64,000 nt of DNA, taken from the NCBI GenBank assembly GCA_964407105.1, contig CAYOUG010000001.1:164273-228272 (forward strand). Reading direction: 5' to 3'. The notes beneath the pieces are model-generated. The model ran no database searches, had not been told where the DNA came from, and worked only from the letters and a program-made list of their open reading frames with translations. The stretch is from an uncultured Candidatus Saccharibacteria bacterium (GTDB lineage: Bacteria; Patescibacteriota; Minisyncoccia; Phycocordibacterales; CALRHW01). Of this stretch, positions 1,593 to 57,584 are shown piece after piece (the stretch's first letter is position 1; each line of letters opens with the position of its first letter). A program made the position numbers and the translations under genes.

Positions 1593-2297
1593 TCAGTCAG
1601 GATCGACTCGCGAGAGAAGGAATGCGAAGCTGTACAAACCGTGACCCGCTCGATTCCAATTATCCTCTGGCCAGACAACATCAAGTGTCTTTGCAGAATC
1701 TATAAAGCGTCTTTCAGAGACCGTTGGAGAATGATCGGCCTGGCGAATTCCGAGCCGAATCTGATTTTGATCCTCCACCTCGTGCATCATGGTCAGATTC
1801 CAAAGACCCATCTCCCTAACCTGGTTGTCCGTGAAAGCTTCACGAAGGAGGAAACATGCTTCTAAAGGAAGTGGCCGCAGACAACGTCTCGAAGCATCGG
1901 CGACGACCATATCGGTCGTCAAAAGCTGTCTGCTAGATGCAAGCCCACGCCCATCTATGATGGCGACAGTGTACTCCACACCGCTCGTCACTTCAAACTT
2001 GGACGATCGCACTGATTCAGACCACTGACTCCTCATGCCATTCCTCAACTCCATGCCCAGATGACGCTCCCAATCATTTTTCGTCATACCAGTCGAGGTG
2101 AGAGTAGTATAGACAACGTTACCGTTGCGACGCCACCTAACCTCCGGCTTCGTGATACGCCACTCGCTGGAGTTCACCAGCCGAATAGCTTCGTTGGGAT
2201 CTTCTGCGCCCGTCTGCCTCATAATGTTCTTCAACAAAGCATTGAGCTTCATGATCTCTGGGAGAACATTAACAATAACAAGTGGATTCTTTTCCAT
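1593..2297 (-). CDS. hypothetical protein, encoded in a GC-rich islet
   Basis: Longest ORF in a visibly GC-rich block (about 1560-2340) with GC-rich codon usage unlike its neighbours; no recognisable motif. Confidence 0.5.
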   Translation of the reverse strand: MEKNPLVIVNVLPEIMKLNALLKNIMRQTGAEDPNEAIRLVNSSEWRITKPEVRWRRNGNVVYTTLTSTGMTKNDWERHLGMELRNGMRSQWSESVRSSKFEVTSGVEYTVAIIDGRGLASSRQLLTTDMVVADASRRCLRPLPLEACFLLREAFTDNQVREMGLWNLTMMHEVEDQNQIRLGIRQADHSPTVSERRFIDSAKTLDVVWPEDNWNRAGHGLYSFAFLLSRVDPD

Positions 2298-39817: not shown

Positions 39818-41173
39818 ATGGATAGTAAAAAAATCTGGGAGAGTGTACTTGTGGATATAGAAATTAATGTTTCTAAGGCAAATTTCAATACTTGGTTCAA
39901 AGATACTTATATATATAAATTTGAAGATGGGGTGGTGTATTTGAGTGTGCCAAATAATTTTGTAAAGGAGTGGCTTCTTAAAAAATTTCACTCATATATA
40001 TTAAAGGCTTTGCGCGGACTATCAGAAAACGTTCGGTCGCTTGACTATATAGTAAGTAGGGGAGATATAAAGAAAAAAGAACCTGATCACATAAAAGGAT
40101 TAAACACTTTAGCTGAAAGCACAAACGAACTACCTTTAAATGAATTTTATATCAACAAAGACGATAATTTGAATCCAAAATACACCTTTGATTCTTTTAT
40201 TATCGGCCCATTCAACGAACTTGCTCACGCAGCAGCGCAAGCGATTATTAAAAAACCAGGAATTGTTTATAATCCACTTTTTGTTTACGGCAACACCGGA
40301 CACGGAAAAACCCACCTTATACAAGCAATAGGTAACCACATGAAACATACTTATCCTGAACGTAAGATACATTACCTTACATCAGAAAAATTTGCTGTTG
40401 ATTATATAAATTCAGTTCAAAATCAAAAAGTAAACAATTTCAAAGAAAAATATAGAAAATATGACGTTCTTATAATGGACGATATTCAATTTCTTTCAAA
40501 TAAAGAGAGGACTCAGGAAGAATTATTCCATTTGTTTAATTTTCTCTACGACAACAATAAGCAAATTATTTTTTCTTCAGACAAACATCCAAACTATATT
40601 CCACAACTCGAGGAACGTCTTAAATCGCGCTTTGGTGCTGGTATGATAGTAGACATTCCTCCTCCAGACGAAGAATCACGCGCAGCTATTTTGACTGCAA
40701 AACTAAAACAACACAACCTAGAACTACCAAAAGAGGTGCTTGCTTATCTTGCACAAACACTTTCTACAAACATTAGAGAGCTTGAGGGTGCTTTAAATGG
40801 GGTAATGATGCAAATGCAACTAAAACAAAAAGAAGTTACTCTTAATGATGTAAAAAACCTTCTTAAAAACAACACAAAACCAAAGAAAAATCTTTCACCA
40901 AAAGAAATAATAAAAATAATCGCTGATTTTTATAATATCAATGAAGAAAGTATTTATGAAAAAACAAGAAAAAAGGAAATAATAAAACCACGCCAAATTA
41001 CTATGTATATTTTACGAGAAGATTTTAATATCTCTTACCCATCAATAGGGGAGAAAATGGGAGGGCGAGACCACACTACAGTTATTCATTCGTGTGAAAA
41101 AATAAAAAACGACCTTAAATTAAATACTGACTTGGCGCAGGAGATAAATCAGATTAGATCAATGTTTGTTTGA
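39818..41173 (+). CDS. dnaA: chromosomal replication initiator protein DnaA
   Basis: AAA+ Walker A GNTGHGKTHL, Walker B LIMDDIQF, sensor motifs and C-terminal DNA-binding domain. Confidence 0.95.
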   Translation: MDSKKIWESVLVDIEINVSKANFNTWFKDTYIYKFEDGVVYLSVPNNFVKEWLLKKFHSYILKALRGLSENVRSLDYIVSRGDIKKKEPDHIKGLNTLAESTNELPLNEFYINKDDNLNPKYTFDSFIIGPFNELAHAAAQAIIKKPGIVYNPLFVYGNTGHGKTHLIQAIGNHMKHTYPERKIHYLTSEKFAVDYINSVQNQKVNNFKEKYRKYDVLIMDDIQFLSNKERTQEELFHLFNFLYDNNKQIIFSSDKHPNYIPQLEERLKSRFGAGMIVDIPPPDEESRAAILTAKLKQHNLELPKEVLAYLAQTLSTNIRELEGALNGVMMQMQLKQKEVTLNDVKNLLKNNTKPKKNLSPKEIIKIIADFYNINEESIYEKTRKKEIIKPRQITMYILREDFNISYPSIGEKMGGRDHTTVIHSCEKIKNDLKLNTDLAQEINQIRSMFV

Positions 41174-41402
41174 TGTGTAAAACCTTGTGTATATAGTGTG
41201 GATAGGGATGAATAAGTGTGGATAAAAAAACAAATTATTTTTCAAAAACTACTTTATGAACAACCTATTAAAAACAATCCACAGTTCAATAATTGAAAAT
41301 AAAAAAAATACGGCTAATTATCGAGGTTTAAAAAGTTATCCAGATATCCACATCCCGTATAATAGTAATAGTATTTATATATAATATATACATACAACAT
41401 AT
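41174..41402. promoter_or_regulatory. candidate oriC: DnaA-box cluster plus an AT-rich unwinding element between dnaA and dnaN
   Basis: TGTGGATAG (41197), TGTGGATAA (41217), CAATCCACA (41275), TTATCCAGA (41336), ATATCCACA (41345), then a pure A/T tract at 41366-41400. Confidence 0.7.
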
Positions 41403-42503
41403 ATGAAAATAGAATGTCTTATCGAAAAATTAAATAAACATATAATGCAGGCTGAGCGTATTGCAGGTAAAAATCATTCACTACCAATTATTAATTGTAT
41501 TTTATTGGAAGCAACAAAAAACTCACTTCGTATTAGATCTACAAATCTTGATTTAGGTATAGAAATTACTGTGCCAGTAAAAGTATTAGAAGAGGGAAGT
41601 GTTGCTGTACCCGCTGGTATATTAGGTATGTTTTTATCGAGTTTACATACAGATAAAGCAGTAACACTAGAAACAAAAGATAATACTTTATTTGTTTTTT
41701 CTCAAAAAAATTCAACACAAATAAAAACCCAGTCAGTAGAAGATTTTCCAACATTACCAATGGTTTCAAATGAAAAACTATTTAAAATTAATCCACAAGA
41801 TTTTATAAATGGTTTAAAGTCGGTATGGTACAGCTCTTCAGTTTCAAGTATGAAATCTGAACTCTCAAGTGTTTATATTTACAGTGATGATGATAGTCTT
41901 GTTTTTGTTGCCACTGACTCATTTAGGCTTGCTGAGAAAAAAATAAAAAACCAGAAAATAAAAGAATTTAATCATCTTCTTATTCCTTTTAAAAACATTC
42001 CAGAAATAATTCGAGTACTTGAAAATACTTCAAATGAAGTGGAAATTTGTGTAGAAAAAAACCAAATATCTTTTACATACGAATACATATACCTTACTTC
42101 ACGTGTTATTGATGGTGTTTTTCCTGATTACAAACAAATTATCCCTAAAAATTTTACTACCGAAGTGGTAATGTTAAAACAAGATTTTGTAAATTCTCTT
42201 AAGACAGCAAATATTTTCTCAAACAAACTTAATCAGATAAACATAAAAGCATTACCGTCTAAAAAGATATTTGAACTTCAAACAAAAAATTCAGATATTG
42301 GAGAAAACACAAATAGTATTGATGCTGTTTTTATAGGTGAAGATATAGATATTAATTTTAATTATAAATATGTTGTTGATTGTCTCCAATCCATTGATTC
42401 AGAAAGTATTTCTTTAAATTTTACAGGAATGAATAAACCAATGGTGATATTTGGTGTTTCAGATAAATCATTTCTTTATCTTGTGATGCCTATGAATAGG
42501 TAG
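41403..42503 (+). CDS. dnaN: DNA polymerase III beta sliding clamp
   Basis: 366 aa with three-domain clamp architecture; conserved N-terminus MKIECLIEKL.. Confidence 0.9.
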   Translation: MKIECLIEKLNKHIMQAERIAGKNHSLPIINCILLEATKNSLRIRSTNLDLGIEITVPVKVLEEGSVAVPAGILGMFLSSLHTDKAVTLETKDNTLFVFSQKNSTQIKTQSVEDFPTLPMVSNEKLFKINPQDFINGLKSVWYSSSVSSMKSELSSVYIYSDDDSLVFVATDSFRLAEKKIKNQKIKEFNHLLIPFKNIPEIIRVLENTSNEVEICVEKNQISFTYEYIYLTSRVIDGVFPDYKQIIPKNFTTEVVMLKQDFVNSLKTANIFSNKLNQINIKALPSKKIFELQTKNSDIGENTNSIDAVFIGEDIDINFNYKYVVDCLQSIDSESISLNFTGMNKPMVIFGVSDKSFLYLVMPMNR

Positions 42504-47876: not shown

Positions 47877-48953
47877 TTATAATAATTTTTTAGTTTTTCC
47901 ATCTTTTGGTAATACACCAATGTGTTCATATCCAGCATCTGTCACCACTCTACCACGCGGTGTGCGCTCTAGAAAACCCACCTGAAGAAGGTATGGCTCA
48001 TTAAATTCTTCTATCGTAGCCTGCTCTTCGGAGAGAGAGGCGGCGAGAGTATTTAAACCCACAGGACCCCCTTTAAATTTTTCGGCAATTGTTTGAAGAA
48101 TCGTGCGATCAGATGGTGAAAGACCTACGTGGTCGATACCAAGAAGCACAAGAGCCTGATCAACAATATCTTTTGTAAGTGACCGTTTGTGGACTTGTGC
48201 AAAATCTCGACAGCGTTTCAAAAAATAATTGGCGGTGCGTGGTGTAAAACGACTTCGTTTTGCGATCTCCGTAACCGCTGTTTTTTCTGCTTCTATGCCA
48301 AGAATTTTTGCTGAACGCTGTATAATTTCTTCAATTTCACTTTGGGTGTAATATTCAAGTCTAAAAATACCACCAGAAAAACGTGAGCGAAGAGGAGAGG
48401 AAATGAGAGCTACGCGAGTGGTTGCGGCAATAAGTGTGAAAAGTGGAAGTTCTAGCTGAACGGTGCGTGCTGAAGGACCTTTACCGATAATAATGTCGAG
48501 TACACCGGATTCCATCGCTGGATAAAGCACTTCTTCAATAGCTTTGTTGAGTCGATGAATTTCATCGATAAATAATATGTCGCCAACAGAAAGATTTGTG
48601 AGAATTGAAGCAAGATCACCCACTTTTTCAATGGCAGGACCAGACGTGATTTTTATTTGCGCACCAGTTTCTTTTGCAATGAGATGGGCGAGGGTTGTTT
48701 TGCCGAGTCCAGGTGGACCGTAAAAAAGAATATGTTCCGGTGGATGGTTTCGTTCACGAGCTGCGGTAAGAAGGATGTGGAGATTATCTTTTATGTTTTT
48801 CTGTCCAATATATTCATGCCATTTTGACGGTCGGAGAGTATGATCTAGAGAGGAGGCATCTTTTTCTGTATCCATTAATCCGGTGTCATCGAGCGGTTTT
48901 GCTGTTTTTGATGATAGCTTCTTCATGAAATCATTATATACAAAAACCCCCAC
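47877..48953 (-). CDS. ruvB: Holliday junction branch migration helicase RuvB
   Basis: LRPSKWHEYIGQ.., GPPGLGKTTLA Walker A, sensor motifs; alternative start at 48926. Confidence 0.9.
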   Translation of the reverse strand: MGVFVYNDFMKKLSSKTAKPLDDTGLMDTEKDASSLDHTLRPSKWHEYIGQKNIKDNLHILLTAARERNHPPEHILFYGPPGLGKTTLAHLIAKETGAQIKITSGPAIEKVGDLASILTNLSVGDILFIDEIHRLNKAIEEVLYPAMESGVLDIIIGKGPSARTVQLELPLFTLIAATTRVALISSPLRSRFSGGIFRLEYYTQSEIEEIIQRSAKILGIEAEKTAVTEIAKRSRFTPRTANYFLKRCRDFAQVHKRSLTKDIVDQALVLLGIDHVGLSPSDRTILQTIAEKFKGGPVGLNTLAASLSEEQATIEEFNEPYLLQVGFLERTPRGRVVTDAGYEHIGVLPKDGKTKKLL

Positions 48954-49058
48954 GCTAGACAGCTGTTATGCATTACGCTAATGATGTATTGACAAATACA
49001 TCAAATTATGCTATACTCTACGTTAGAAATACCTTGAAATTAAATGTGTGTTGAGATG

Positions 49059-49110
49059 TTTGCCACAACGGAAAATGGCTTGAAAATAAGCTATTTTCCG
49101 TTGTGGCAAA
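49059..49110. promoter_or_regulatory. 52-bp palindrome (perfect 18-bp arms) upstream of the GC-rich ORF; candidate operator
   Basis: TTTGCCACAACGGAAAAT-ggcttgaaaataagct-ATTTTCCGTTGTGGCAAA, about 50 nt upstream of the ATG at 49158. Confidence 0.4.
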
Positions 49111-49157
49111 CCAATGTGGTTAAGCCAACAAACAGCACTTCAGAAAGGAAAAGTCAC

Positions 49158-49718
49158 ATGGCACGTTCAAAGTCTGAAAAACTCATGAACCCGGCGACAG
49201 AATTGGAAATCGGAGAGGTGGAAGCAGTGGACACTTTTGTTTTGAAAGGAGACTCTTTCATTACGATCAGAGAGGGAAAACAGACCTCGACGATGGTGGC
49301 TTCCATCGACCCCTTTTTTATGAGTCGATTTTTTACGAAGACCCCAAATGCGGATCATGCCATGGTGGTTGTCAAACCACCAACATTGAAACGAAGGTTT
49401 CAGTGCACCGGCTTGAAGCGATACGACCATGGAAGGTACGTGGTTGCGAGCGAGGTGATTCGCGAGTTGGGTGGGGAAGCAAAGGTCGCAATAACTCCAG
49501 CGGAGTTTTGTCACTTTCTGGCGTCCCAATCCGATGATTTTAGGTTCAAGAATCGCGTTTGTTTTATGAGGGACACAAGTGGTGTTCTTCAGGAGGTTTA
49601 TGTGAGTTACTACCAACATGGTTCTCTAGCTGGTCTTCATATCAGCGCCAACCTCATCAATTGCGGTCGATGGTCTGAGGGAACACGTTTGGTTTTCCCT
49701 CGTGCCAAAGGAAAGTGA
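49158..49718 (+). CDS. hypothetical protein in a GC-rich islet
   Basis: GAAAGGAAAAG ribosome-binding site; GC-rich codon usage unlike the flanking ruvB and pilB; no recognisable motif. Confidence 0.5.
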   Translation: MARSKSEKLMNPATELEIGEVEAVDTFVLKGDSFITIREGKQTSTMVASIDPFFMSRFFTKTPNADHAMVVVKPPTLKRRFQCTGLKRYDHGRYVVASEVIRELGGEAKVAITPAEFCHFLASQSDDFRFKNRVCFMRDTSGVLQEVYVSYYQHGSLAGLHISANLINCGRWSEGTRLVFPRAKGK

Positions 49719-49750
49719 TTCAATACACGAGATCCCTGATCGTTCTCTAT

Positions 49751-49790
49751 GGTCCTCGTTTGCTTAGGCAGACCGAGGACCATTTTTTTT
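49751..49790 (+). terminator. GC-rich intrinsic terminator
   Basis: GGTCCTCG-tttgcttaggcagac-CGAGGACC followed by TTTTTTTT. Confidence 0.75.
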
Positions 49791-50204
49791 ATTTAATTAT
49801 TTCACTTGACATTTTAGACAATGTATGATACATTTATGGGGAACTTGAAATATGGCGGTGTCAAACGATCAAAGACAGACAGTCCTTGATTTTTTTCTCG
49901 CCTTGGGTAATATATGAGACTCCCACTTTATGGGGTACTCCTTTGTCAATCCAAGATATAAATCTCTAAGCAACGAGGCCTTACGGCCTAGTAAGATTTC
50001 TTCAGAGGACATTCTGGTTACCACCTTGTGTGGTTTGCTGGGGTTATCCTATGTGAAATGTTTAACTTTTGGTACGAATATTAAAAGTGTTGCTTAGAGA
50101 TTTATGTCTTTGATTGTTTTAAAAACAATTCATCTCTACTAGTCTAATTATTCATAGGAAAAGAGTTTCTGCAATCTTGTAAAACAAAAAATCTGTTTCT
50201 TAAT

Positions 50205-50236
50205 ACAAAAAACACTCGAGCTTGAGTGTTTTTTGT
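50205..50236. terminator. terminator hairpin downstream of pilB
   Basis: AAAAAACACTCGAG-ct-TGAGTGTTTTTTG. Confidence 0.6.
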
Positions 50237-50237
50237 A

Positions 50238-51914
50238 TTATTTATCTTCTTCTAGATCTACAACACGCTGTAATTCTTCAATAGAAGTGATTCCCTGTAA
50301 TACTTTTATAATTCCATCTTGTTGCATGTCTAAAAGGTGCTGTGGAGCGGCTGCTTTTTTGATTTCTCTTTCACTTGGATTGTATTGCACCACTTTTTCT
50401 ATTTCCTCATCTGTTTTTATTGCCTCATAAACACCAATACGTCCACGATAACCAGTAAAATTACATTTATTGCATCCTTTTGCTTCCCAAATCATACTCA
50501 AATCAATACCATCAAGATACGTTTTGTCTTCTATACCTCCAATAATTTTTTCTAATATTTCTTTTTCTTTACCCTCGAGTTTTTTTTGCGCTTTGCAATC
50601 AACGCAAAGTTTTCTTACTAAGCGTTGAGCCATACAGATACTAATTGCTGATGTAATCACTTTTGGATTTACACCAAGATCGATGAGGCGAGGGAATGCT
50701 CCAGCTGCGTTGTTGGTGTGAAGTGTGGAAAACACCAAATGTCCGGTAAGCGCCGCGTTTACTGCTATTTCTGCGGTTTCGTTGTCGCGAATTTCTCCCA
50801 CCATTATGACGTCTGGGTCTTGGCGAAGCGCTGAACGCAGGCCCTCGAGAAATGTGTAGTCTTCGGTGGTTTGTGTTTGCACAATTCCCGGCAAATGATA
50901 TTCAATCGGATTTTCAATTGTAATAATTTTAATATCTGATGAATGAATTTTTTTCAGAAATGCGTAGAGTGTGGTGGTTTTTCCGGAGCCGGTTGGACCT
51001 GTGTTTAAAATCATACCGTTTGGTTTGCTGATTTCATTTTGTAATACAGAAAGAAGTCGTGGATGAATACCAAGCTCTTCTAGGGGAACAGAAATTGCTT
51101 TTGGATTAAGCACGCGCAAAACAATTGAGTCGTTATATGCGCCCGGTAAAAGGGAAGTACGAATTTCAATTTCATCTCCTTCGAGTTTGATACTAAAACG
51201 TCCATCTTGTGCTTTTCCTTTTATATTTAGTTTTAAGTTTGAAAGCAGTTTTATACGAGACAAAATGAGATTGTAGGTGTCTGTATCAAATCGAATAATA
51301 TCGGTAAGCACACCGTCGAGACGATAACGCAAACGCACATATGCTTCTTCTGGCTCAACGTGTATGTCTGAGGCTTTTTGGGCCAGTGCTCCAGCAAGAA
51401 TTGTTTCAAGAATGCGAGAAATACGGTATGCTTTTTTTTCTGCAAGACCCTCCTCTAAAAGTTTTTGAAGTTCGTCGAGCGTTGTTACTTTTTCAAGTAA
51501 GGCAATAATACCTTCGTTTGAAAGATCAAGTGCTCCACCTTTTGTTTCCATTGACATTGAAAGATCTTTGTAACGATCCCACACTTTTTTTAGACTTTCT
51601 GGTGACACAAGATAGATTATTGGGATGTATCCTTTTTCTGTGAGTGCGGCGATAGCGTTTTTTGTTTGTTCTGTACTTGGAGAAAGTACACCAACGTGAA
51701 GTTTTTTGTCTACAATATTAAAAACTGCTATTTGTGCGGCGATAGCATCTTCTTCTTTTAGAACACGAAGAGCGTCTATGTTTACTGGCACAAGCGCAAG
51801 ATCAAGATAAGGGAGTTCATATTTTTCTGAAAGTACTTCGGTGAGATTTTCTGCTTCGTGACGCTTAAGTTCTTCTAGTCGTTCGTTTTGTTTTTCTTCA
51901 TTAAATTGAACCAT
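50238..51914 (-). CDS. pilB: type IV pilus assembly / type II secretion ATPase PilB/GspE family
   Basis: N-terminal GSPII domain, Walker A GPTGSGKTTT, Asp/His boxes, C-terminal CxxC..CxxC zinc site (CVDC..CNKC). Confidence 0.85.
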   Translation of the reverse strand: MVQFNEEKQNERLEELKRHEAENLTEVLSEKYELPYLDLALVPVNIDALRVLKEEDAIAAQIAVFNIVDKKLHVGVLSPSTEQTKNAIAALTEKGYIPIIYLVSPESLKKVWDRYKDLSMSMETKGGALDLSNEGIIALLEKVTTLDELQKLLEEGLAEKKAYRISRILETILAGALAQKASDIHVEPEEAYVRLRYRLDGVLTDIIRFDTDTYNLILSRIKLLSNLKLNIKGKAQDGRFSIKLEGDEIEIRTSLLPGAYNDSIVLRVLNPKAISVPLEELGIHPRLLSVLQNEISKPNGMILNTGPTGSGKTTTLYAFLKKIHSSDIKIITIENPIEYHLPGIVQTQTTEDYTFLEGLRSALRQDPDVIMVGEIRDNETAEIAVNAALTGHLVFSTLHTNNAAGAFPRLIDLGVNPKVITSAISICMAQRLVRKLCVDCKAQKKLEGKEKEILEKIIGGIEDKTYLDGIDLSMIWEAKGCNKCNFTGYRGRIGVYEAIKTDEEIEKVVQYNPSEREIKKAAAPQHLLDMQQDGIIKVLQGITSIEELQRVVDLEEDK

Positions 51915-52002
51915 GGTGTATTTATACTAACATTTTCGGTGAGTGTTACACACGTGTGGTGTGGAAAGGTTTTGCTTTTAAGGTAGTATTTATTAGCTAG
52001 TA

Positions 52003-52031
52003 TTGACTTTTATTCTTCATTGTGCTATAAT
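52003..52031 (+). promoter_or_regulatory. sigma70-like promoter for the GC-rich lipoprotein gene
   Basis: TTGACT, 17-nt spacer, TATAAT, about 65 nt upstream of the ATG; AAAGGAGGG ribosome-binding site. Confidence 0.55.
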
Positions 52032-52097
52032 AGAAAAGGATGAAGTGAGGAATGTTTCCTGCTTCAAATACAGAAATTCCGCCCAAAGGAGGGCATC

Positions 52098-52430
52098 ATG
52101 ACAACTCGATCGAACATTATCAAACTCGCAGTTCTCACCTTCGTCGCGATGCTCCTCGGTGGAGCGTTTGGCGGATGTGGTCCTCAACGGACCACGTCGA
52201 TTGAGACTGTGGTTAACCCCGACGGTTCAACCACGGTCCACAAGTACAAGACGGTTGTCGAGGGAGGGAGCGGAATGTTCGCCCCCGTCCACATCAACCG
52301 ATACTCGTCCCCCGGATATGTTCGGGGGCGATACGTGGAATGGGGTACGGAGAATCGCGGGGTTGCTTATCACAGCTTCGGGCTCAACGAGCCCCACAAG
52401 CACGTGTATGGCAACAACTGCAACAAGTGA
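52098..52430 (+). CDS. small putative lipoprotein in a GC-rich islet
   Basis: Signal peptide ending ..LLGGAFGGC (lipobox-like); GC-rich codons; own promoter and terminator. Confidence 0.55.
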   Translation: MTTRSNIIKLAVLTFVAMLLGGAFGGCGPQRTTSIETVVNPDGSTTVHKYKTVVEGGSGMFAPVHINRYSSPGYVRGRYVEWGTENRGVAYHSFGLNEPHKHVYGNNCNK

Positions 52431-52627
52431 ATGATGAAGTGTATACCACAACATCATCACAACGCGCGCTTAACCTTTCGAGGTTTGGCGCGTTTTTTCT
52501 TGTGTGTATACGTATTTTTTTTAATAATTTAAATATTGACTGTCGATATAATTTATGTTAGTATTGTGGAAGATTAAACAGCAGAAATTTTTTCAGCTGT
52601 TTCCGCAAAGCCAACAGAAAGGAAGTT

Positions 52628-53020
52628 ATGAAGCTCTTTGGAATTGTTGCTGCGGCGATGGTTGCAGCTGTGTCATGTGGTGCGTTGGCTGAGACGATTA
52701 CGCGTACCGAGTACGCTGGTGGGCCGGTCATGACGTACACCAACGGTGTGCTCACGCATGTCAACGGTATGAGTGTGCCACCACCCGCACCTCCGCCAGC
52801 CCCCGTTGTGCAGACGCAGGTTGTGGTGGTGCAACAGTATGCCCCGCCTCCGCAGGTGGTGTGTGTCGAACGGCCACGCGTGGTCTTTCGGTACTACCAC
52901 CAGCCGACGTACTGCGCACCGGTGGTGCATGTGCGTTCGTGTGAATCACGGGTGAATGTTGGCCTTTCAGTCGGCATTCGTTTCGGTGGTGGACACGATC
53001 ACTTTCACCCTTGCCGCTAG
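52628..53020 (+). CDS. small secreted Pro-rich, Cys/His-containing protein in a GC-rich islet
   Basis: Signal peptide (..CGALA/ETI), PPPAPPPAP linker, four Cys and GGGHDHFHPC at the C-terminus; own promoter-like TTGACT..TAGTAT and AAAGGAAG ribosome-binding site. Confidence 0.55.
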   Translation: MKLFGIVAAAMVAAVSCGALAETITRTEYAGGPVMTYTNGVLTHVNGMSVPPPAPPPAPVVQTQVVVVQQYAPPPQVVCVERPRVVFRYYHQPTYCAPVVHVRSCESRVNVGLSVGIRFGGGHDHFHPCR

Positions 53021-53085
53021 ACGTTTGCATCTCTCTTGGGGTGCGCACGCGTCAGATCTTTATGGTCTGACGCGTTTTCTTTTAC

Positions 53086-53158
53086 AAAATTTGTTGTAAC
53101 CCCCCACCCAACACTCTCTCACTAAAGCGCTTCGCTAACCCGTTCGAGAGTGTTGGGT
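53086..53158. repeat. exceptionally long perfect hairpin (23-bp GC-rich stem, 27-nt loop) upstream of tsaE
   Basis: GTAACCCCCCACCCAACACTCTC ... GAGAGTGTTGGGTGGGGGGTTAC; loop contains TCGCTAACCCGTTCGAG, similar to the loop at 6251-6268. Confidence 0.7.
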
Positions 53159-53172
53159 GGGGGGTTACACCC

Positions 53173-53703
53173 TTGATGAAAGATTGTTTTGTGTGGGTTT
53201 TAGGCGACCAGCTGTGCTACTATAGTCGCATGATTACTACCACAAGTCTGACAGAAACATACGTGGTTGCGGCGGATTTTGTACAAAAAATTATCAAAAT
53301 TCCCCAACAAATTTCTGATAATAATTCTTTATCTAATGCTATTGTTGTTGGTTTTTATGGAGATTTAGGTGCAGGAAAAACAGCTTTCATACAAGGTATA
53401 GCAAAAGCGTTGGGTGTAGAATCTCAGGTGGTGAGTCCTACGTTTGTGTTAGAAAAAATATATAAACTTAATGCGAGTATGCAGGAAAGATTTACACACC
53501 TTGTGCACATTGATGCGTATCGTATGGATGATCCAAAAGAACTTGTGCATATTGGCTGGCACGATCTTCTTAAAGATTCGCGAAACCTTATTTGTATTGA
53601 ATGGCCAGAACGTGTTGCATCAGAAATGCCACAAAATCATATTCACATCACTTGTGGTTTCGTTGACGACACAACTCATACTTACGATATTCAATTATCA
53701 TGA
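53173..53703 (+). CDS. tsaE: tRNA threonylcarbamoyladenosine biosynthesis protein TsaE
   Basis: P-loop GDLGAGKTAF and TsaE-like length; alternative start 53230. Confidence 0.8.
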   Translation: MMKDCFVWVLGDQLCYYSRMITTTSLTETYVVAADFVQKIIKIPQQISDNNSLSNAIVVGFYGDLGAGKTAFIQGIAKALGVESQVVSPTFVLEKIYKLNASMQERFTHLVHIDAYRMDDPKELVHIGWHDLLKDSRNLICIEWPERVASEMPQNHIHITCGFVDDTTHTYDIQLS

Positions 53704-56240
53704 CTTCTGCTATACAAAAAGAAAAAACGAAAACCCGCATCAGTGGTGAACAAAAAAAAGTTGTACTACTCGATGTGCATGCAATAATTCATCGCGCTTA
53801 TCATGCGTTGCCTGATTTTTCATCTGCGAAAGGTGAGCCCACTGGTGCGCTTTATGGTTTGTGCACAATGCTTCTAAAAATCGCAGGTGAACTTTCTCCA
53901 GATTATGTAGTGGCGTGTTATGATCTTCCAGAAAAAACACATCGACACGAAGTGTACGAAGCGTACAAAGGTACACGTAAGAAAATTGACGATGCGCTTA
54001 TTGCGCAGATTATACGTTCTCGAGATATTTTTACAGCGTTTAATATTCCTATCTATGCATGTCCGGGTTTTGAAGCAGATGATGTGCTTGGTACTATTGC
54101 AGAACATTTAAAAAAGGGGGACGCAACGGTGGGTGATGATAAAAAAGTTGATGTTAATGTAAGTGTGATTATTGCTTCTGGTGATATGGATACGCTTCAG
54201 CTTGTTGATGATAAAAAAGTGCAAGTTTACACTTTGCGAAAAGGAATTAAAGACACGGTGCTTTATGACGAAGAGGCGGTGTGTGAGCGTTTTGGTTTTG
54301 CGCCAATACTTTTGCCAGATTTTAAAGGACTTCGTGGAGACCCCTCAGATAATATTATTGGCATCAAAGGTATTGGAGAAAAAACCGCGACAACACTTAT
54401 TACAACATTTGGCTCGATAGAAAAAATGTATGAGGCGCTTGCTAAAGGTGATGCGTCATTTAAAGAAGCTGGAATTACTCCGAGAATTATTGATTTGTTG
54501 CGAGCAGGAAAAGAAGAGGCGATGTTTTCAAAAACACTTGCAACGATTCGTCGTGATGCACCGATAGATTTTTCTTTGCCAGAACAAACATGGAAAGAAT
54601 CGCTCTCGCAAAATGGCTCACATATTGCGATACTCAGTGCTCTTTTTGCAGAACTAGATTTTCGTTCAATGATGGGTCGTGTGGAAGAAGTGTTGCTTGG
54701 GAAAAAGCCTCTCAAGCAGAGCAGTTTGCTTGGTGTGGACAATGAGAGTGGATTGGGTGCGGCGGGAGCGGCAGAGGGCGTGGGCGTAAGCGCGGGCACG
54801 GTAGCGCTCCCGCCGCATGAACAAAAGCTTCTTTCTCTTGCCCTGTGGATTATTGATTCAAATATTTCAAATCCCACAACAGAAGATATTTTGCGCTTTG
54901 CACACACCGACTCACTCGTTGTCGCACAAAAAATGATTTTCTCCGAACTTGAAAAACGCGGTCTTTTGAAAGTATTTAAAGAAATTGAAGAGCCGCTCAT
55001 TGCCGTGATAGATGGAATGCAAACTCGAGGGATAAAAGTAGATACGAAATATTTAAAAACACTTTCGCAGGAGTATCATGCACGTCTCAAAGATCTTGAG
55101 AAAAATATTTACAAAGAAGCGGGAGGGGAGTTTAATATCAACTCACCAAAACAAATGGGCGAGATTCTTTTCGATAAACTCGGCCTCTCTGTGAAAGGAC
55201 AAAAGAAAACTGCGGGCGGTGCAAAATCTACGCGCGAAAGTGAGCTTGAAAAAATGATTGATATTCATCCAATCATCAAACACATTCTCACATATCGGAT
55301 GCTTCAAAAACTCGTTTCTACATACATCGACACGTTACCCACAATGCTTGCGGAAGACGGACGCCTACACACCACCTTTGAACAAACAGGCACCACCACC
55401 GGCCGTATGTCTTCCAACAATCCCAACCTTCAAAATATTCCTATCAAAACAGAAGAAGGTCGTCGCATCCGAAATGCTTTTGTAAGCGAGCGAGGTTTCA
55501 AACTCGTCACCTTCGACTATTCTCAAATCGAACTTCGCATCGCAGCATTTCTTTCTGGCGATCAAAAACTAATTGAAATTTTTACATCCGGCGGAGACAT
55601 TCATGAAGCGGTGGCGTCGCAAGTGTTTGGTGTACCGCGCGAAAAAGTGGATAGGGAAATGCGCCGCAGGGCGAAAGTTATCAACTTCGGCATTCTTTAT
55701 GGTATGGGAGTAAATGCTTTGCGTGCAAATTTAAGTGAAGGCGTAGCAAAGGGTTCTGAAGTTTCCCGCGAAGAAGCGCAGCGTTTTTTTGACGAATATT
55801 TTAATACATTCACCGGTCTCGCACAGTATTTAGAAAATGTAAAAGCGAGCGCAAAAAAGACCGGCTACACAGAAACATTTTTCGGTCGTCGTAGATATTT
55901 TCCGCAGATAAAATCTAAGCTTCCATACATTGTGGCGGCAAATGAGCGCATGGCTATCAACGCTCCGATACAAGGCACAGCAGCGGATGTGATCAAGCTT
56001 TCTATGATTCACATTCACGACTACATTAAAAAAGAAGGTTTGGAGAACGATGTGTTTCTCTTGCTTCAGGTGCACGATGAACTTGTGTTTGAAATTCGTG
56101 AAGATGCTGTGAAAAAAGTGTTGCCGGAGCTTGAGCGTATTATGCAAAGCGTGCTTACTCCTACGCAAATGCGTGGCGTGCCTTTAAAAGTAAATGGTAA
56201 ATTGGGGGACAATTGGGGCGAGACTGAAGAGATCAAATAA
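53700..56240 (+). CDS. polA: DNA polymerase I (5'-3' exonuclease plus polymerase domains)
   Basis: FEN motifs in the N-terminal domain; motif A DYSQIELR, motif B RRAKVINFGILYG, motif C LLQVHDELVFE; contains an in-frame GC-rich palindromic insertion in the inter-domain linker. Confidence 0.9.
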   Translation: MTSAIQKEKTKTRISGEQKKVVLLDVHAIIHRAYHALPDFSSAKGEPTGALYGLCTMLLKIAGELSPDYVVACYDLPEKTHRHEVYEAYKGTRKKIDDALIAQIIRSRDIFTAFNIPIYACPGFEADDVLGTIAEHLKKGDATVGDDKKVDVNVSVIIASGDMDTLQLVDDKKVQVYTLRKGIKDTVLYDEEAVCERFGFAPILLPDFKGLRGDPSDNIIGIKGIGEKTATTLITTFGSIEKMYEALAKGDASFKEAGITPRIIDLLRAGKEEAMFSKTLATIRRDAPIDFSLPEQTWKESLSQNGSHIAILSALFAELDFRSMMGRVEEVLLGKKPLKQSSLLGVDNESGLGAAGAAEGVGVSAGTVALPPHEQKLLSLALWIIDSNISNPTTEDILRFAHTDSLVVAQKMIFSELEKRGLLKVFKEIEEPLIAVIDGMQTRGIKVDTKYLKTLSQEYHARLKDLEKNIYKEAGGEFNINSPKQMGEILFDKLGLSVKGQKKTAGGAKSTRESELEKMIDIHPIIKHILTYRMLQKLVSTYIDTLPTMLAEDGRLHTTFEQTGTTTGRMSSNNPNLQNIPIKTEEGRRIRNAFVSERGFKLVTFDYSQIELRIAAFLSGDQKLIEIFTSGGDIHEAVASQVFGVPREKVDREMRRRAKVINFGILYGMGVNALRANLSEGVAKGSEVSREEAQRFFDEYFNTFTGLAQYLENVKASAKKTGYTETFFGRRRYFPQIKSKLPYIVAANERMAINAPIQGTAADVIKLSMIHIHDYIKKEGLENDVFLLLQVHDELVFEIREDAVKKVLPELERIMQSVLTPTQMRGVPLKVNGKLGDNWGETEEIK
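54759..54815 (+). repeat. in-frame GC-rich palindromic insertion within polA (57 bp, 19 codons; encodes AAGAAEGVGVSAGTVALPP)
   Basis: 11-bp terminal inverted repeat GCGGCGGGAGC / GCTCCCGCCGC; codon usage foreign to the rest of polA. Confidence 0.6.
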
Positions 56241-56256
56241 TTTTTACACAATATTT

Positions 56257-56976
56257 ATGCTCTACTTTCTCTACGGCACAGATTCAAAAAAAGCTCGCAA
56301 CAAACTTCACGAGCTGCTCGAAACGCTTCAAAAGAAAAAACCGGATGCGAGCGTTTTTCGTATAGAAGCAGAGCAGTGGAACGCGGCACAATTTGAAGAA
56401 TTGCTCAGCGGACAAGGACTTTTTTCAAACAAATATATTGTGGTACTTGATCGCGTGTTTGAAAATACGGAAGCAAAAGAATATATTGTAGACTCTCTAA
56501 AAAAAGTTGCGGAGTCTGACAATGTTTTTATTTTTATTGAAGGTAAGATAGACGTCGCGACGCTCAAGAAGATCGAAAAGCATGCACAGAAAACGCAGGA
56601 ATTTGAAGAGAAAAAAAATGCGCCAGCCGCGCAAGCATTTAATATGTTTTCTCTCACCGATGCGTTTGGTACGCGCGATAAAAAAAAGTTGTGGGTGCTT
56701 TATCAGCAGGCAATTGCTTCGGGTGCACAGCCAGAAGAAATTCACGGCATTTTATTTTGGCAACTCAAAAGTATGATCGTGGCATCGGAAGCGGGGAGTG
56801 CTGAAGCTGCGGGCCTGAAGCCCTTTGTGTATCAAAAGTCGCGCGGGTTTGCTGCAAAATTTTCTCCTGCCGAACTACGCTCTATGTCCAGTGCTTTCAT
56901 CGACATCTACCACAACGCTCGCCGCGGAATATGTGACATGGACATTGCGCTTGAGAAGTTTGTGTTGGGGTTATAG
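56257..56976 (+). CDS. holA: DNA polymerase III delta subunit-like protein
   Basis: N-terminal LYFLYGTD and overall HolA-like pattern; the longer ORF from 56194 overlaps polA. Confidence 0.6.
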   Translation: MLYFLYGTDSKKARNKLHELLETLQKKKPDASVFRIEAEQWNAAQFEELLSGQGLFSNKYIVVLDRVFENTEAKEYIVDSLKKVAESDNVFIFIEGKIDVATLKKIEKHAQKTQEFEEKKNAPAAQAFNMFSLTDAFGTRDKKKLWVLYQQAIASGAQPEEIHGILFWQLKSMIVASEAGSAEAAGLKPFVYQKSRGFAAKFSPAELRSMSSAFIDIYHNARRGICDMDIALEKFVLGL

Positions 56977-57082
56977 GACAATTTGAAATTACGTATTGTT
57001 GACTTATTTCTACCTCATGTTACCATCTTTGCTTGACGTGTTTTTGTGTTCGGGGGTTCATTTAACATCTTGGGAGTCTAGA

Positions 57083-57400
57083 ATGCTTAGCTTGGTGATC
57101 GAAGTGAGTCATGAATTGTTTCTTCGCGTCGAGGAACTGACGAATGCTGTGGTGAGGGCGGTCGTTGAGGCAACCGGAATCAACGCCGCCGATCTGTGGT
57201 TTTTTGTGAAGGGACCACCTGAACAAGATCTGGCTCCAAATGGGGTCATGATCAAGACGAGCGGTTGGTCGCAACAAACAGATTGGCTACAACAGCTTGA
57301 AAGAGCTGTCACGAACGCAATCAGCGGGATGGGCTTTCAACCGCAAAGGGTTGCGATGTGTCATTCGGTGGCATTGCGAAGCACGCTTTTTTCCCACTGA
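57083..57400 (+). CDS. small hypothetical protein in a GC-rich islet
   Basis: GGAG ribosome-binding site; GC-rich codons; followed by the GC-rich terminator CCGCCCG..CGGGCGG at 57432-57470. Confidence 0.45.
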   Translation: MLSLVIEVSHELFLRVEELTNAVVRAVVEATGINAADLWFFVKGPPEQDLAPNGVMIKTSGWSQQTDWLQQLERAVTNAISGMGFQPQRVAMCHSVALRSTLFSH

Positions 57401-57511
57401 ATCGATCCGATGATCAAAAAACAAAAAACGTCCCGCCCGCAGAAGTCGCACGACTCTCGGGCGGCTTTTGTTTTGTAAATTAAAAAACTGCTAAAAGCAG
57501 TTTTTTTCTAG

Positions 57512-57584
57512 TCCGCCCACCAGGACTCGAACCTGGGACCAAGTGCTTAAAAGGCACCTGCTCTACCAACTGAGCTATAGGCGG
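57512..57584 (-). tRNA. tRNA-Lys (anticodon UUU)
   Basis: Hand fold: D-arm GCTCAGTTGGTAGAGC, anticodon loop CTTTTAA, T-loop GGTTCGAGTCC; unusual 5' C1 paired to G72. Confidence 0.85.

Follow-up and report, generated by a model that had tools for sequence, protein, structure and literature searches.

Organization of the pilB–tsaE islet

The window analysed here, a 64-kb stretch (64,000 nucleotides) of contig CAYOUG010000001.1 to which all coordinates below refer, contains between the divergently transcribed genes pilB and tsaE an islet of about 1 kb with two small genes, designated orfA (52098–52430, plus strand) and orfB (52628–53020, plus strand). These genes encode a 110-amino acid (aa) putative lipoprotein and its 130-aa exported paralog, respectively, and are best explained as tandem paralogs that belong to a small family of exported envelope proteins, restricted to one lineage, in a bacterium of the Paceibacteria (Parcubacteria, Candidate Phyla Radiation [CPR]). 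The PolA protein encoded nearby finds its best match among GTDB species representatives in ‘Parcubacteria group bacterium SLM_LV1_02b-J04’, at 75% identity. As developed below, the GC-richness that sets the two genes apart from their surroundings is inherited rather than recently imported, and is maintained, probably for the sake of mRNA structure or stability. The interval between pilB and tsaE, here termed the “slot”, has two conserved borders: on the left pilB (50238–51914, minus strand), coding for a type IV pilus/type II secretion system E (T2SS-E) ATPase of the PilB/GspE type (PF00437, E 6e-116), and on the right tsaE (53230–53703, plus strand), the start of which is taken to be the ATG at 53230.

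Both genes carry their own transcription signals. The orfA promoter (52003–52031, plus strand) is composed of a –35 box TTGACT (52003–52008), a 17-nt spacer, an extending TG (52023–52024) and a –10 box TATAAT (52026–52031), and belongs to a set of just four sites that match the promoter consensus at 11/12 or better on the two strands of the window. About 3 nt past the start inferred from the –10 box, the transcript is predicted to fold into a 5'-proximal stem-loop (52041–52066, plus strand), and a ribosome-binding site, AAAGGAGGG (52085–52093, plus strand), lies 4 nt ahead of the ATG. The orfA unit closes with an intrinsic terminator at about 52463–52498 (plus strand), a GC-rich interrupted hairpin followed by TTTTTT. 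For orfB, a promoter of the form TTGACT-17-TAGTAT with a TG upstream (52536–52564, plus strand) precedes a second predicted 5'-proximal stem-loop, AAACAGCAGAAATTTTTTCAGCTGTTT (52576–52602, plus strand), and the terminator at about 53047–53082 (plus strand) consists of a 12-bp stem, a 5-nt loop and a T-run. An earlier sequence-only reading of the islet had proposed two small secreted proteins, each with its own promoter and terminator, as well as a ribosome-binding site; every one of these elements is present where that reading had placed it.

The orfA and orfB proteins

Both proteins start with a typical signal peptide. To their translations we applied by hand the lipobox rule of the PROSITE PS51257 type, which specifies a basic residue in the first 7 positions, an uncharged hydrophobic stretch and the motif [LIVMFWSTAG]2-[LIVMFYSTAGCQ]-[AGS]-C with the Cys at 15–35. 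The orfA product follows the rule, with R4 and K9 and then ...MLLGGAFGG-C27, so that its lipobox reads AFGG-C27, and it is probably lipid-anchored. The orfB product also follows it, with K2 and then ...VAAAMVAAVS-C17. Here AVS-C17 is a possible lipobox and ALA-E23 a possible signal peptidase I site; because the orfB ortholog P0003 lacks Cys17, and has VDA-E where orfB has ALA-E, orfB may instead be cut by signal peptidase I. The sequence thus points to orfB being either lipid-anchored or cleaved by signal peptidase I. In the relative described below, the contig lacks the N-terminus of the orfA-like gene, where the lipobox Cys would lie.

The ortholog P0003 is a 130-aa Paceibacteria protein from Hainich groundwater. 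It can be aligned with orfB from end to end at 44% identity, and its last 47 residues are 53–59% identical to the C-terminus of orfA. Because P0003 thus matches orfB throughout and orfA at the C-terminus, orfA and orfB are considered to be paralogs. The C-terminal module of orfA reads RYSSPGY..RYVEWGT.N.GVAYH..GL..PHKH...C, and a more diverged copy is present in orfB; an N-terminal module, ETxxRTExAGGPVMxYTxGVLTH, is common to orfB and P0003. In orfB, a Pro/Val-rich linker leads to a C-terminal HxHxH..CR, the last residues being GGGHDHFHPCR. Metal binding or a disulfide is suggested by the HxH...C arrangement conserved at the C-terminus, and the two products are possible surface or effector proteins for which an envelope location seems likely.

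Relatives of these proteins are exceedingly few. Neither Pfam nor NCBIfam holds a family for orfA or orfB. A word-indexed search of 5.8 billion clusters returned no match to orfA and, for orfB, no sequence other than itself, and a family-profile search of the same clusters added nothing further; scans of viral contigs likewise found no relative. With orfA as query, exhaustive scanning of 1.84 billion representative proteins by HMMER gave two matches, P0002 and P0003. The top match, P0002, is a 5817-aa YadA-like adhesin in which a 27-residue motif, V..DG.T..YKTV.E, scored 14 times; since a single repeat yields only E 2e-4 in one pairwise comparison, P0002 was rejected as a homologue of orfA. 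The module shared by orfA and orfB is recovered at E values between 1e-19 and 1e-27 in the window, in L001 and in L118, and nowhere else. The proteins' own locus (P0001) and P0003 are the sole true relatives found. The homology search invited by the sequence-only reading thus yielded a relative in the closest lineage and none in any lineage that could have served as donor.

Composition and codon usage

The GC-rich islet that the sequence-only reading saw beside pilB is borne out. The GC content of orfA is 0.562 and that of orfB 0.593, against 0.382 for the whole window (standard deviation [sd] 0.049 in 333-nt windows), and the two genes are the two top-GC stretches of the window. At third codon positions (GC3), the values are 0.68 and 0.60, compared with 0.27 in pilB, 0.28 in tsaE and 0.36 in polA. 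The anomaly stops at the limits of the coding sequences (CDSs): the 197-nt spacer between orfA and orfB is AT-rich (GC 0.34), and the 183 nt located 5' of orfA have a GC of 0.37.

Much of this excess resides at synonymous sites. Amino-acid composition (Gly, Val, Pro, Ala, Arg, Thr) explains about one-quarter of the GC excess in orfA and about one-half in orfB, and the remainder is synonymous. The GC3 expected from the protein sequences is 0.30, as opposed to the 0.60–0.68 observed. Scored against a codon table derived from 42 ordinary window genes, orfA has a mean log relative codon frequency of –1.51 and orfB one of –1.36, as against –0.97 +/- 0.056 for the reference genes, which places the codon usage of the islet genes 7–10 sd away; the codons that they prefer are the rarest in this genome, as judged from the same table. 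Within each gene, GC3 is 0.50 over the first 30 codons, including the signal peptide, and 0.63–0.75 over the rest; among the other slot genes tested (see below), the corresponding difference is of mixed direction. Many other exported proteins of the window have ordinary GC3 values of 0.20–0.33.

Coding capacity and integrity of the locus

Two lines of evidence bear on whether the islet is genuine. A 6542-bp contig in the Logan assembly of run SRR12487045 corresponds to window positions 50219–56760 and is 100% identical over both junctions, and a contig from another sample, L118, has the same islet architecture. Chimerism, which the sequence-only reading had raised as a possible undoing of its own proposal, is therefore excluded as far as sequence can show. 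As to coding function, the ratio of nonsynonymous to synonymous substitution rates (dN/dS) against the L118 orthologs is 0.10 for orfA (43 codons) and 0.38 for orfB (92 codons), and both genes are coding and under purifying selection. Several overlapping open reading frames (ORFs) occupy both strands of the islet. Public gene calls miss orfA, and on the Logan contig an antisense ORF of 76 aa is called in its place, presumably because of the odd codon usage. Rfam 15 contains no family that matches the window at gathering thresholds apart from tRNAs situated elsewhere, and none that matches 51800–53300 at E values up to 10; weak matches to miRNA models reflect a hairpin at 53095–53169 that is described in the final section.

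Inheritance of the orfA–orfB pair

L118 is a 1083-bp Hainich groundwater contig that encodes P0003 and presents, in order, the 3' end of an orfA-like gene, a spacer, an orfB-like gene, a terminator and tsaE. Over the same 96 residues of the TsaE N-terminus, L118 is 68% identical to the window, L002 56% and L038 55%; hence L118 is the closest relative found. Its genes share the composition of the islet: the orfA-like 3' end has a GC of 0.625 and a GC3 of 0.81, and the orfB-like gene has a GC of 0.60, with an AT-richer spacer between them that carries a terminator and a TTGACC promoter. The spacers of the window and L118 are 74% identical. For the orfB promoter, the –35 region (TATTGAC) and the –10 region can be aligned; a hairpin lies at the place equivalent to the orfB 5' stem-loop, with TTTTCAG in common; and both terminator stems, of orfA as well as orfB, are retained by means of compensatory substitutions.

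Synonymous sites between the orthologs are saturated, the proportion of synonymous differences (pS) being 0.57–0.73. A foreign signature would decay over such synonymous turnover, yet GC3 is high in both lineages, ranging from 0.60 to 0.81 across the window and L118 (0.63–0.81 in L118) beside tsaE genes at 0.28 and 0.43; the composition must therefore have been maintained. From these comparisons, the orfA/orfB pair is inherited from an ancestor common to the window and L118 and is not a recent import. Two suppositions of the sequence-only reading are accordingly left unsupported. Recent horizontal acquisition conflicts with a GC-rich orthologous pair at saturated synonymous sites and with the clade-wide anomaly described in the next section, and donation by a high-GC host finds no homologue outside the lineage in either the 1.84 billion representatives or the 5.8 billion clusters. 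That reading had also reckoned with relatives carrying the same genes at ordinary composition, and the L118 copies are instead equally GC-rich. Comparison of related loci, as it had advised, gives a divided result: the unit is present in L118, and orfA and orfB are absent from L002 and L038.

The slot across the Paceibacteria

The gene order in which ruvB and pilB are transcribed in one direction and tsaE, polA and holA in the other is conserved in the Paceibacteria. From 36 genome and 80 metagenome loci that were fetched, 84 have a divergent pilB and tsaE, and in 62/84 the gap contains at least one tsaE-oriented ORF with a signal peptide or lipobox; in most of the remaining loci, the gap is shorter than about 150 bp. 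The mean GC3 of slot genes is 0.576 as against 0.409 for flanks, with the slot higher in 93% of comparisons (Wilcoxon p 5e-12), and slot GC3 follows flank GC3 with a regression slope as low as 0.34. The slot gene has the highest GC3 of its locus in 36/46 evaluable loci (median z 4.1). No GC3 gradient extends into the adjacent ends of pilB or tsaE, so the effect is limited to the gene and is not regional; a regional hot spot of recombination or gene conversion was rejected on the same ground. Strong expression signals accompany these genes: 74% of 72 have upstream a match of at least 10/12 to TTGACA-17-TATAAT, 20 of them perfect, compared with 7% of random windows at that threshold, and a terminator falls within 90 nt past the stop in 50% of slot genes vs 7% of random windows.

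Most prominent among the slot products is a single family of 41 proteins (alignment A3) with the motifs VxVxNNT, L.PG, G.YLG and W.V. Protein similarity within this main slot family tracks pilB similarity (Mantel r 0.49, p 0.001), which indicates that its inheritance is largely vertical. The orfA and orfB genes share the position of the family, in that they lie between divergent pilB and tsaE, are oriented as tsaE and encode exported proteins. In the literature, we found no description of the family of orfA and orfB or of the main slot family, nor of the combined GC3 and structure signature that runs through the clade. The main-family members, found in at least 41 Paceibacteria loci (loci L003–L117), are lipoproteins of 130–310 aa with an invariant lipobox Cys and no Pfam or PDB relative, and some of the longer ones possess an extra coiled-coil N-terminal region.

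Predicted structure in the slot mRNAs

The predicted folding of each native CDS was compared with that of synonymous-codon permutations in which protein and codon counts are unchanged (global z-score), and with shuffles confined to 25-codon blocks, which preserve local composition and change 10–14% of bases. For orfA, the z-score is –5.4 in the global test and –3.7 in the block test; for orfB, it is –1.7 and –1.45; and for P0003, the global value is –1.1. Among 18 slot genes of other loci, the mean global z is –3.0, whereas the tsaE genes of those loci average –0.56 (paired p 0.001), and ten ordinary genes of the window average about –0.1 in the block test, with an sd of approximately 1.5. The structure excess survives block shuffling in most of nine slot genes that were retested.

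For three main-family orthologs, a consensus fold includes 22 compensatory pairs as compared with 12.4 +/- 2.5 in shuffled and 4–7 in slid controls; with three sequences, and a structure derived from the same alignment and hence circular, this is only suggestive. As a separate observation, in L096 (3334–3807, minus strand; columns 130–158 of alignment A8) the codons of the conserved VVLTNNT protein motif (GTTGTGTTG..CAACAACAC) self-pair as a hairpin, and at one pair each of three orthologs has a different Watson-Crick combination. Constraint may run both ways between this motif and the RNA stem.

Proposed explanation and its alternatives

The interpretation that we favour, at roughly even confidence, is that orfA and orfB are inherited, monocistronic envelope-protein genes whose gene-specific GC-richness is maintained, most likely by selection on mRNA structure or stability. 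Throughout the clade, the slot usually contains one or two monocistronic genes for small lipoproteins or secreted proteins, with near-consensus sigma-70 promoters, intrinsic terminators and a markedly higher GC at synonymous sites than every neighbouring gene; according to the model, selection would act on the mRNA to keep synonymous GC high. A 5'-proximal hairpin, a strong Shine-Dalgarno sequence, codons arranged to pair and a strong 3' hairpin would combine in a heavily base-paired message that is presumably long-lived and would give a high output of a small envelope protein. Selection of this kind is favoured because promoter, hairpins, Shine-Dalgarno sequence and paired CDS together amount to the architecture of long-lived, high-output bacterial mRNAs, for which lpp, ompA and the cry genes of B. 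thuringiensis are the classical examples. In a more tentative, wider version of the proposal, which we are inclined to doubt, the slot lipoprotein gene would be a class-wide feature whose synonymous sites have long been kept GC-rich and paired against AT bias, amounting to a selection-maintained hyper-structure of the mRNA and possibly a dual coding and structural RNA; its product, wholly uncharacterised, may be the most strongly expressed surface protein of these ultrasmall bacteria, and orfA and orfB would represent a divergent, duplicated version.

Several observations weigh against the mRNA-structure model. High expression and mRNA stability of orfA and orfB are themselves properties that we infer. 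The structure excess is weak in orfB (z about –1.5) and in its ortholog P0003 (–1.1), and the z-scores of control genes are themselves spread out (sd about 1.5), the ordinary gene ruvC reaching –3.0; because of this scatter, the signal is convincing for the class and less so for any single gene. The HU gene is presumably expressed at a high level and yet its GC3, 0.24, is ordinary, so high expression alone need not bring GC-rich codons in this genome. Neither orfA nor orfB has a profile match to the main slot family (hidden Markov model [HMM] E 0.26–0.35; hhalign probability 3%). AlphaFold2 models of the mature proteins have predicted local distance difference test (pLDDT) values of 41 for orfA and 52 for orfB, and lend no structural support to any function. 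Finally, the slot proteins of the next-closest lineages, L002 and L038, lack significant similarity to orfA and orfB. The 103-aa L002 protein has a lipobox LVG-C, then GP as in orfA, and a C-terminus ...DRHCR; it scores 4.4 bits against the orfA/orfB C-terminal module, above the 95th but below the 99th percentile of shuffled sequences of matched composition, and the 114-aa L038 protein shows no significant match to the module. Like orfA and orfB, these two proteins have no match to the main slot family. The slot gene of these two lineages may have been replaced, or may be an ortholog that has diverged past recognition.

Replacement is the essence of an alternative that we take seriously but consider rather unlikely overall, namely, cassette turnover within the Paceibacteria. 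The slot would then be a permissive or hot site at which autonomous, moron-like promoter-ORF-terminator units are swapped by recombination through the pilB and tsaE/polA flanks, with their GC derived from a donor pool or from GC-biased gene conversion. It accords with such swapping that the three closest lineages (the window with L118, L002 and L038) lack detectable slot-protein similarity, that DNA homology with L002 breaks off 20 nt upstream of pilB and is regained only within tsaE, that slot GC3 is only weakly tied to host GC3 (the slope of 0.34), and that other GC-elevated insertions relative to L002 lack homologues, two genes of this sort, orf224 (49044–49718) and orf234 (1593–2297), standing behind two of the four best promoters of the window. 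Additionally, CPR bacteria of the Saccharibacteria are naturally competent (PMC10187176), and recombining bacterial genes tend to higher GC3 (PMC4450053). Turnover sits poorly, however, with a closest relative that has the same pair in alignable regulatory DNA, with main-family similarity that follows pilB (Mantel r 0.49), with the lack of any GC3 gradient into flanks that would be the recombination arms, with the sparing of the AT-rich spacers inside the islet, and with viral contigs that gave no relative. A shared donor pool alone also fails to explain the direction of the bias, because the mean slot GC3 of 0.58 exceeds nearly all host backgrounds, and biased gene conversion does not predict a codon arrangement that favours pairing.

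The remaining alternatives carry less weight. We regard as improbable the idea that the GC-rich codons are retained for their rarity, as a brake on the translation of exported proteins that would, for example, set the pace of Sec or Lgt processing or offset a very strong promoter, with the extra RNA structure as a by-product. The codons used are indeed the rarest in the genome and the proteins are exported from behind very strong promoters, but many other exported proteins of the window have GC3 values of only 0.20–0.33, the structure excess persists under global and local shuffles that hold codon usage constant, and in orfA and orfB GC3 is lower in the first 30 codons than in the rest, with a mixed direction among the other slot genes tested. 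It is very improbable that the islet is an island recently received from some GC-rich organism, perhaps an episymbiont's host, and yet to drift toward resident composition. Although the deviant codon usage (7–10 sd from resident genes) and the absence of the genes from L002 and L038 would suit an island, and Paceibacteria are thought to be episymbionts or parasites (PMC10936435), it would have to be reconciled with the lack of any homologue outside the lineage (among 1.84 billion representatives and 5.8 billion clusters), with a synonymously saturated L118 pair that still has high GC3, with promoters, spacer and terminators that are AT-rich, resident in style and conserved, with borders at which no tRNA, integrase or flanking direct repeats were found, and with the same anomaly at the same slot clade-wide. 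Hardly credible, in our estimation, is the view that the GC-rich stretches are structured non-coding RNAs with accidental ORFs or that the islet arose as a chimera during assembly. Structured RNAs often account for GC-rich islands of AT-rich genomes, and the strongly negative fold z-scores and the overlapping ORFs on both strands would agree with this; against it stand the lack of an Rfam match at gathering or permissive thresholds, dN/dS values of 0.10–0.38, correctly placed signal peptides and ribosome-binding sites, protein motifs kept in L118 and a slot family conserved at the protein level, and, as regards a chimera, the identical independent assembly and the second sample with the same layout.

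Relation to known systems

On the mRNA-structure model, the orfA and orfB units invite comparison with lpp of Escherichia coli, which encodes the Braun lipoprotein, a very small and abundant envelope lipoprotein produced from a monocistronic gene with a strong promoter, an intrinsic terminator and a highly paired, long-lived mRNA. The likeness is one of design (small lipoprotein, monocistronic, strong promoter, terminator), with abundance and half-life presumed for the islet genes. The two systems have no sequence similarity, the organism here is a CPR bacterium not known to possess an outer membrane, and the C-terminal Lys of orfA is not kept in its paralog or orthologs. Furthermore, in the islet the design would be reached through a gene-specific synonymous rise of GC in an AT-rich genome. 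Phage morons, autonomous promoter-ORF-terminator units of deviant composition, offer a second comparison, as orfA and orfB each have their own sigma-70 promoter, a factor-independent terminator and a composition unlike that of their neighbours. Unlike morons, they lie outside any prophage, among ruvB, pilB, tsaE, polA and holA with no phage genes nearby, have no relatives in the viral contigs scanned, and form a unit that is inherited with its chromosomal flanks. The unit is thus lpp-like in its working and moron-like in its form, and a member of neither group, given the lack of homology to the one and of phage context for the other.

Acquired genomic islets resemble orfA and orfB in atypical GC, codon usage and absence from some close relatives. 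The islet genes differ from these in having no mobility genes, tRNA borders, direct repeats or donor homologues, in their presence in the closest relative and in a composition that is maintained despite synonymous turnover. With the main slot family, orfA and orfB have in common position, orientation, signal peptide or lipobox, high GC3, promoters, terminators, excess RNA structure and a size within 100–270 aa, but no detectable sequence or profile similarity.

Implications

Atypical GC is routinely taken as a mark of horizontal transfer. In the present case, a strong GC and codon anomaly has been inherited and maintained and does not extend beyond the gene, and composition-based calls of alien genes would therefore be wrong for such genes in this clade. 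Genes of the orfA type are also mis-annotated by gene callers. If the mRNA-structure model is true, the locus would provide a concrete example of synonymous-site selection for mRNA architecture in uncultivated bacteria. The value of the locus lies more in the clade-wide pattern than in the orfA/orfB pair. The slot protein, small, probably abundant, fast-evolving and encoded beside a pilus ATPase gene, is a prime candidate for roles in surface biology, host contact or phage recognition in the Paceibacteria, for which most of the secreted proteins expressed at high levels have no known function (PMC10936435).

Other features of the region

Between the orfB terminator and the tsaE promoter lies a perfect 24-bp inverted repeat with a 27-nt loop (53095–53169; TGTAACCCCCCACCCAACACTCTC) that is specific to this lineage. 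There is no second copy in the window, and the repeat is absent from L118, L002 and all 117 fetched loci except L001. This uniqueness led us to reject the 75-bp hairpin as a repeated element, whether a miniature inverted-repeat transposable element (MITE) or an attC-like element; it looks like an insertion in this lineage and need not be part of the orfA/orfB unit. A conserved extended –10 box, TGTGCTACTAT, precedes the tsaE ATG at 53230 by about 7 nt (window 53210–53232; L118 808–824), and no Shine-Dalgarno sequence is evident before that ATG. tsaE-polA may thus be transcribed as a leaderless mRNA, and the longer tsaE ORF listed with a TTG start from 53173 is probably wrong. On the other side of the islet, a 28-nt inverted repeat (93% complementary) with arms 114 nt apart occurs just downstream of pilB (49947–50116), in a region that still aligns with L002, and a 20-bp palindrome (50201–50240) spans the pilB stop.

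Three further GC-elevated ORFs were noted in the window. Between ruvB and pilB, 48882–49949 comprises about 900 bp that are extra relative to the collinear L002, including orf224 (49044–49718, plus strand; 224 aa), which is similar to orfA in design, with a GC of 0.47, a GC3 of 0.50 and a block-shuffle z of –2.7. Its promoter, TTGACA-17-TATACT (48989–49017), is among the four best of the window and, together with a 24-bp hairpin at 49058–49111, suggests that the real start may be the Met at 49158. orf224 has no homologue and no Pfam, NCBIfam or viral match. orf234 (1593–2297, minus strand; 234 aa; GC 0.50, GC3 0.54, structure z –2.9), transcribed from TTGACG-17-TATAAT at 2480–2452 and likewise lacking a homologue and any family or viral match, is the third strongly promoted, GC-rich gene without homologues in this genome. 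Between holA and tRNA-Lys (57511–57584), an interval of about 550 bp (56957–57508) compares with 66 bp in L002 and contains an ORF (56996–57400, plus strand; 134 aa; GC 0.49, GC3 0.54) without a family match. Finally, dnaA and dnaN occupy 39818–42503, about 10 kb upstream of the islet, with dnaN having the lowest GC of the window (0.28), and the islet therefore lies near the probable replication origin.

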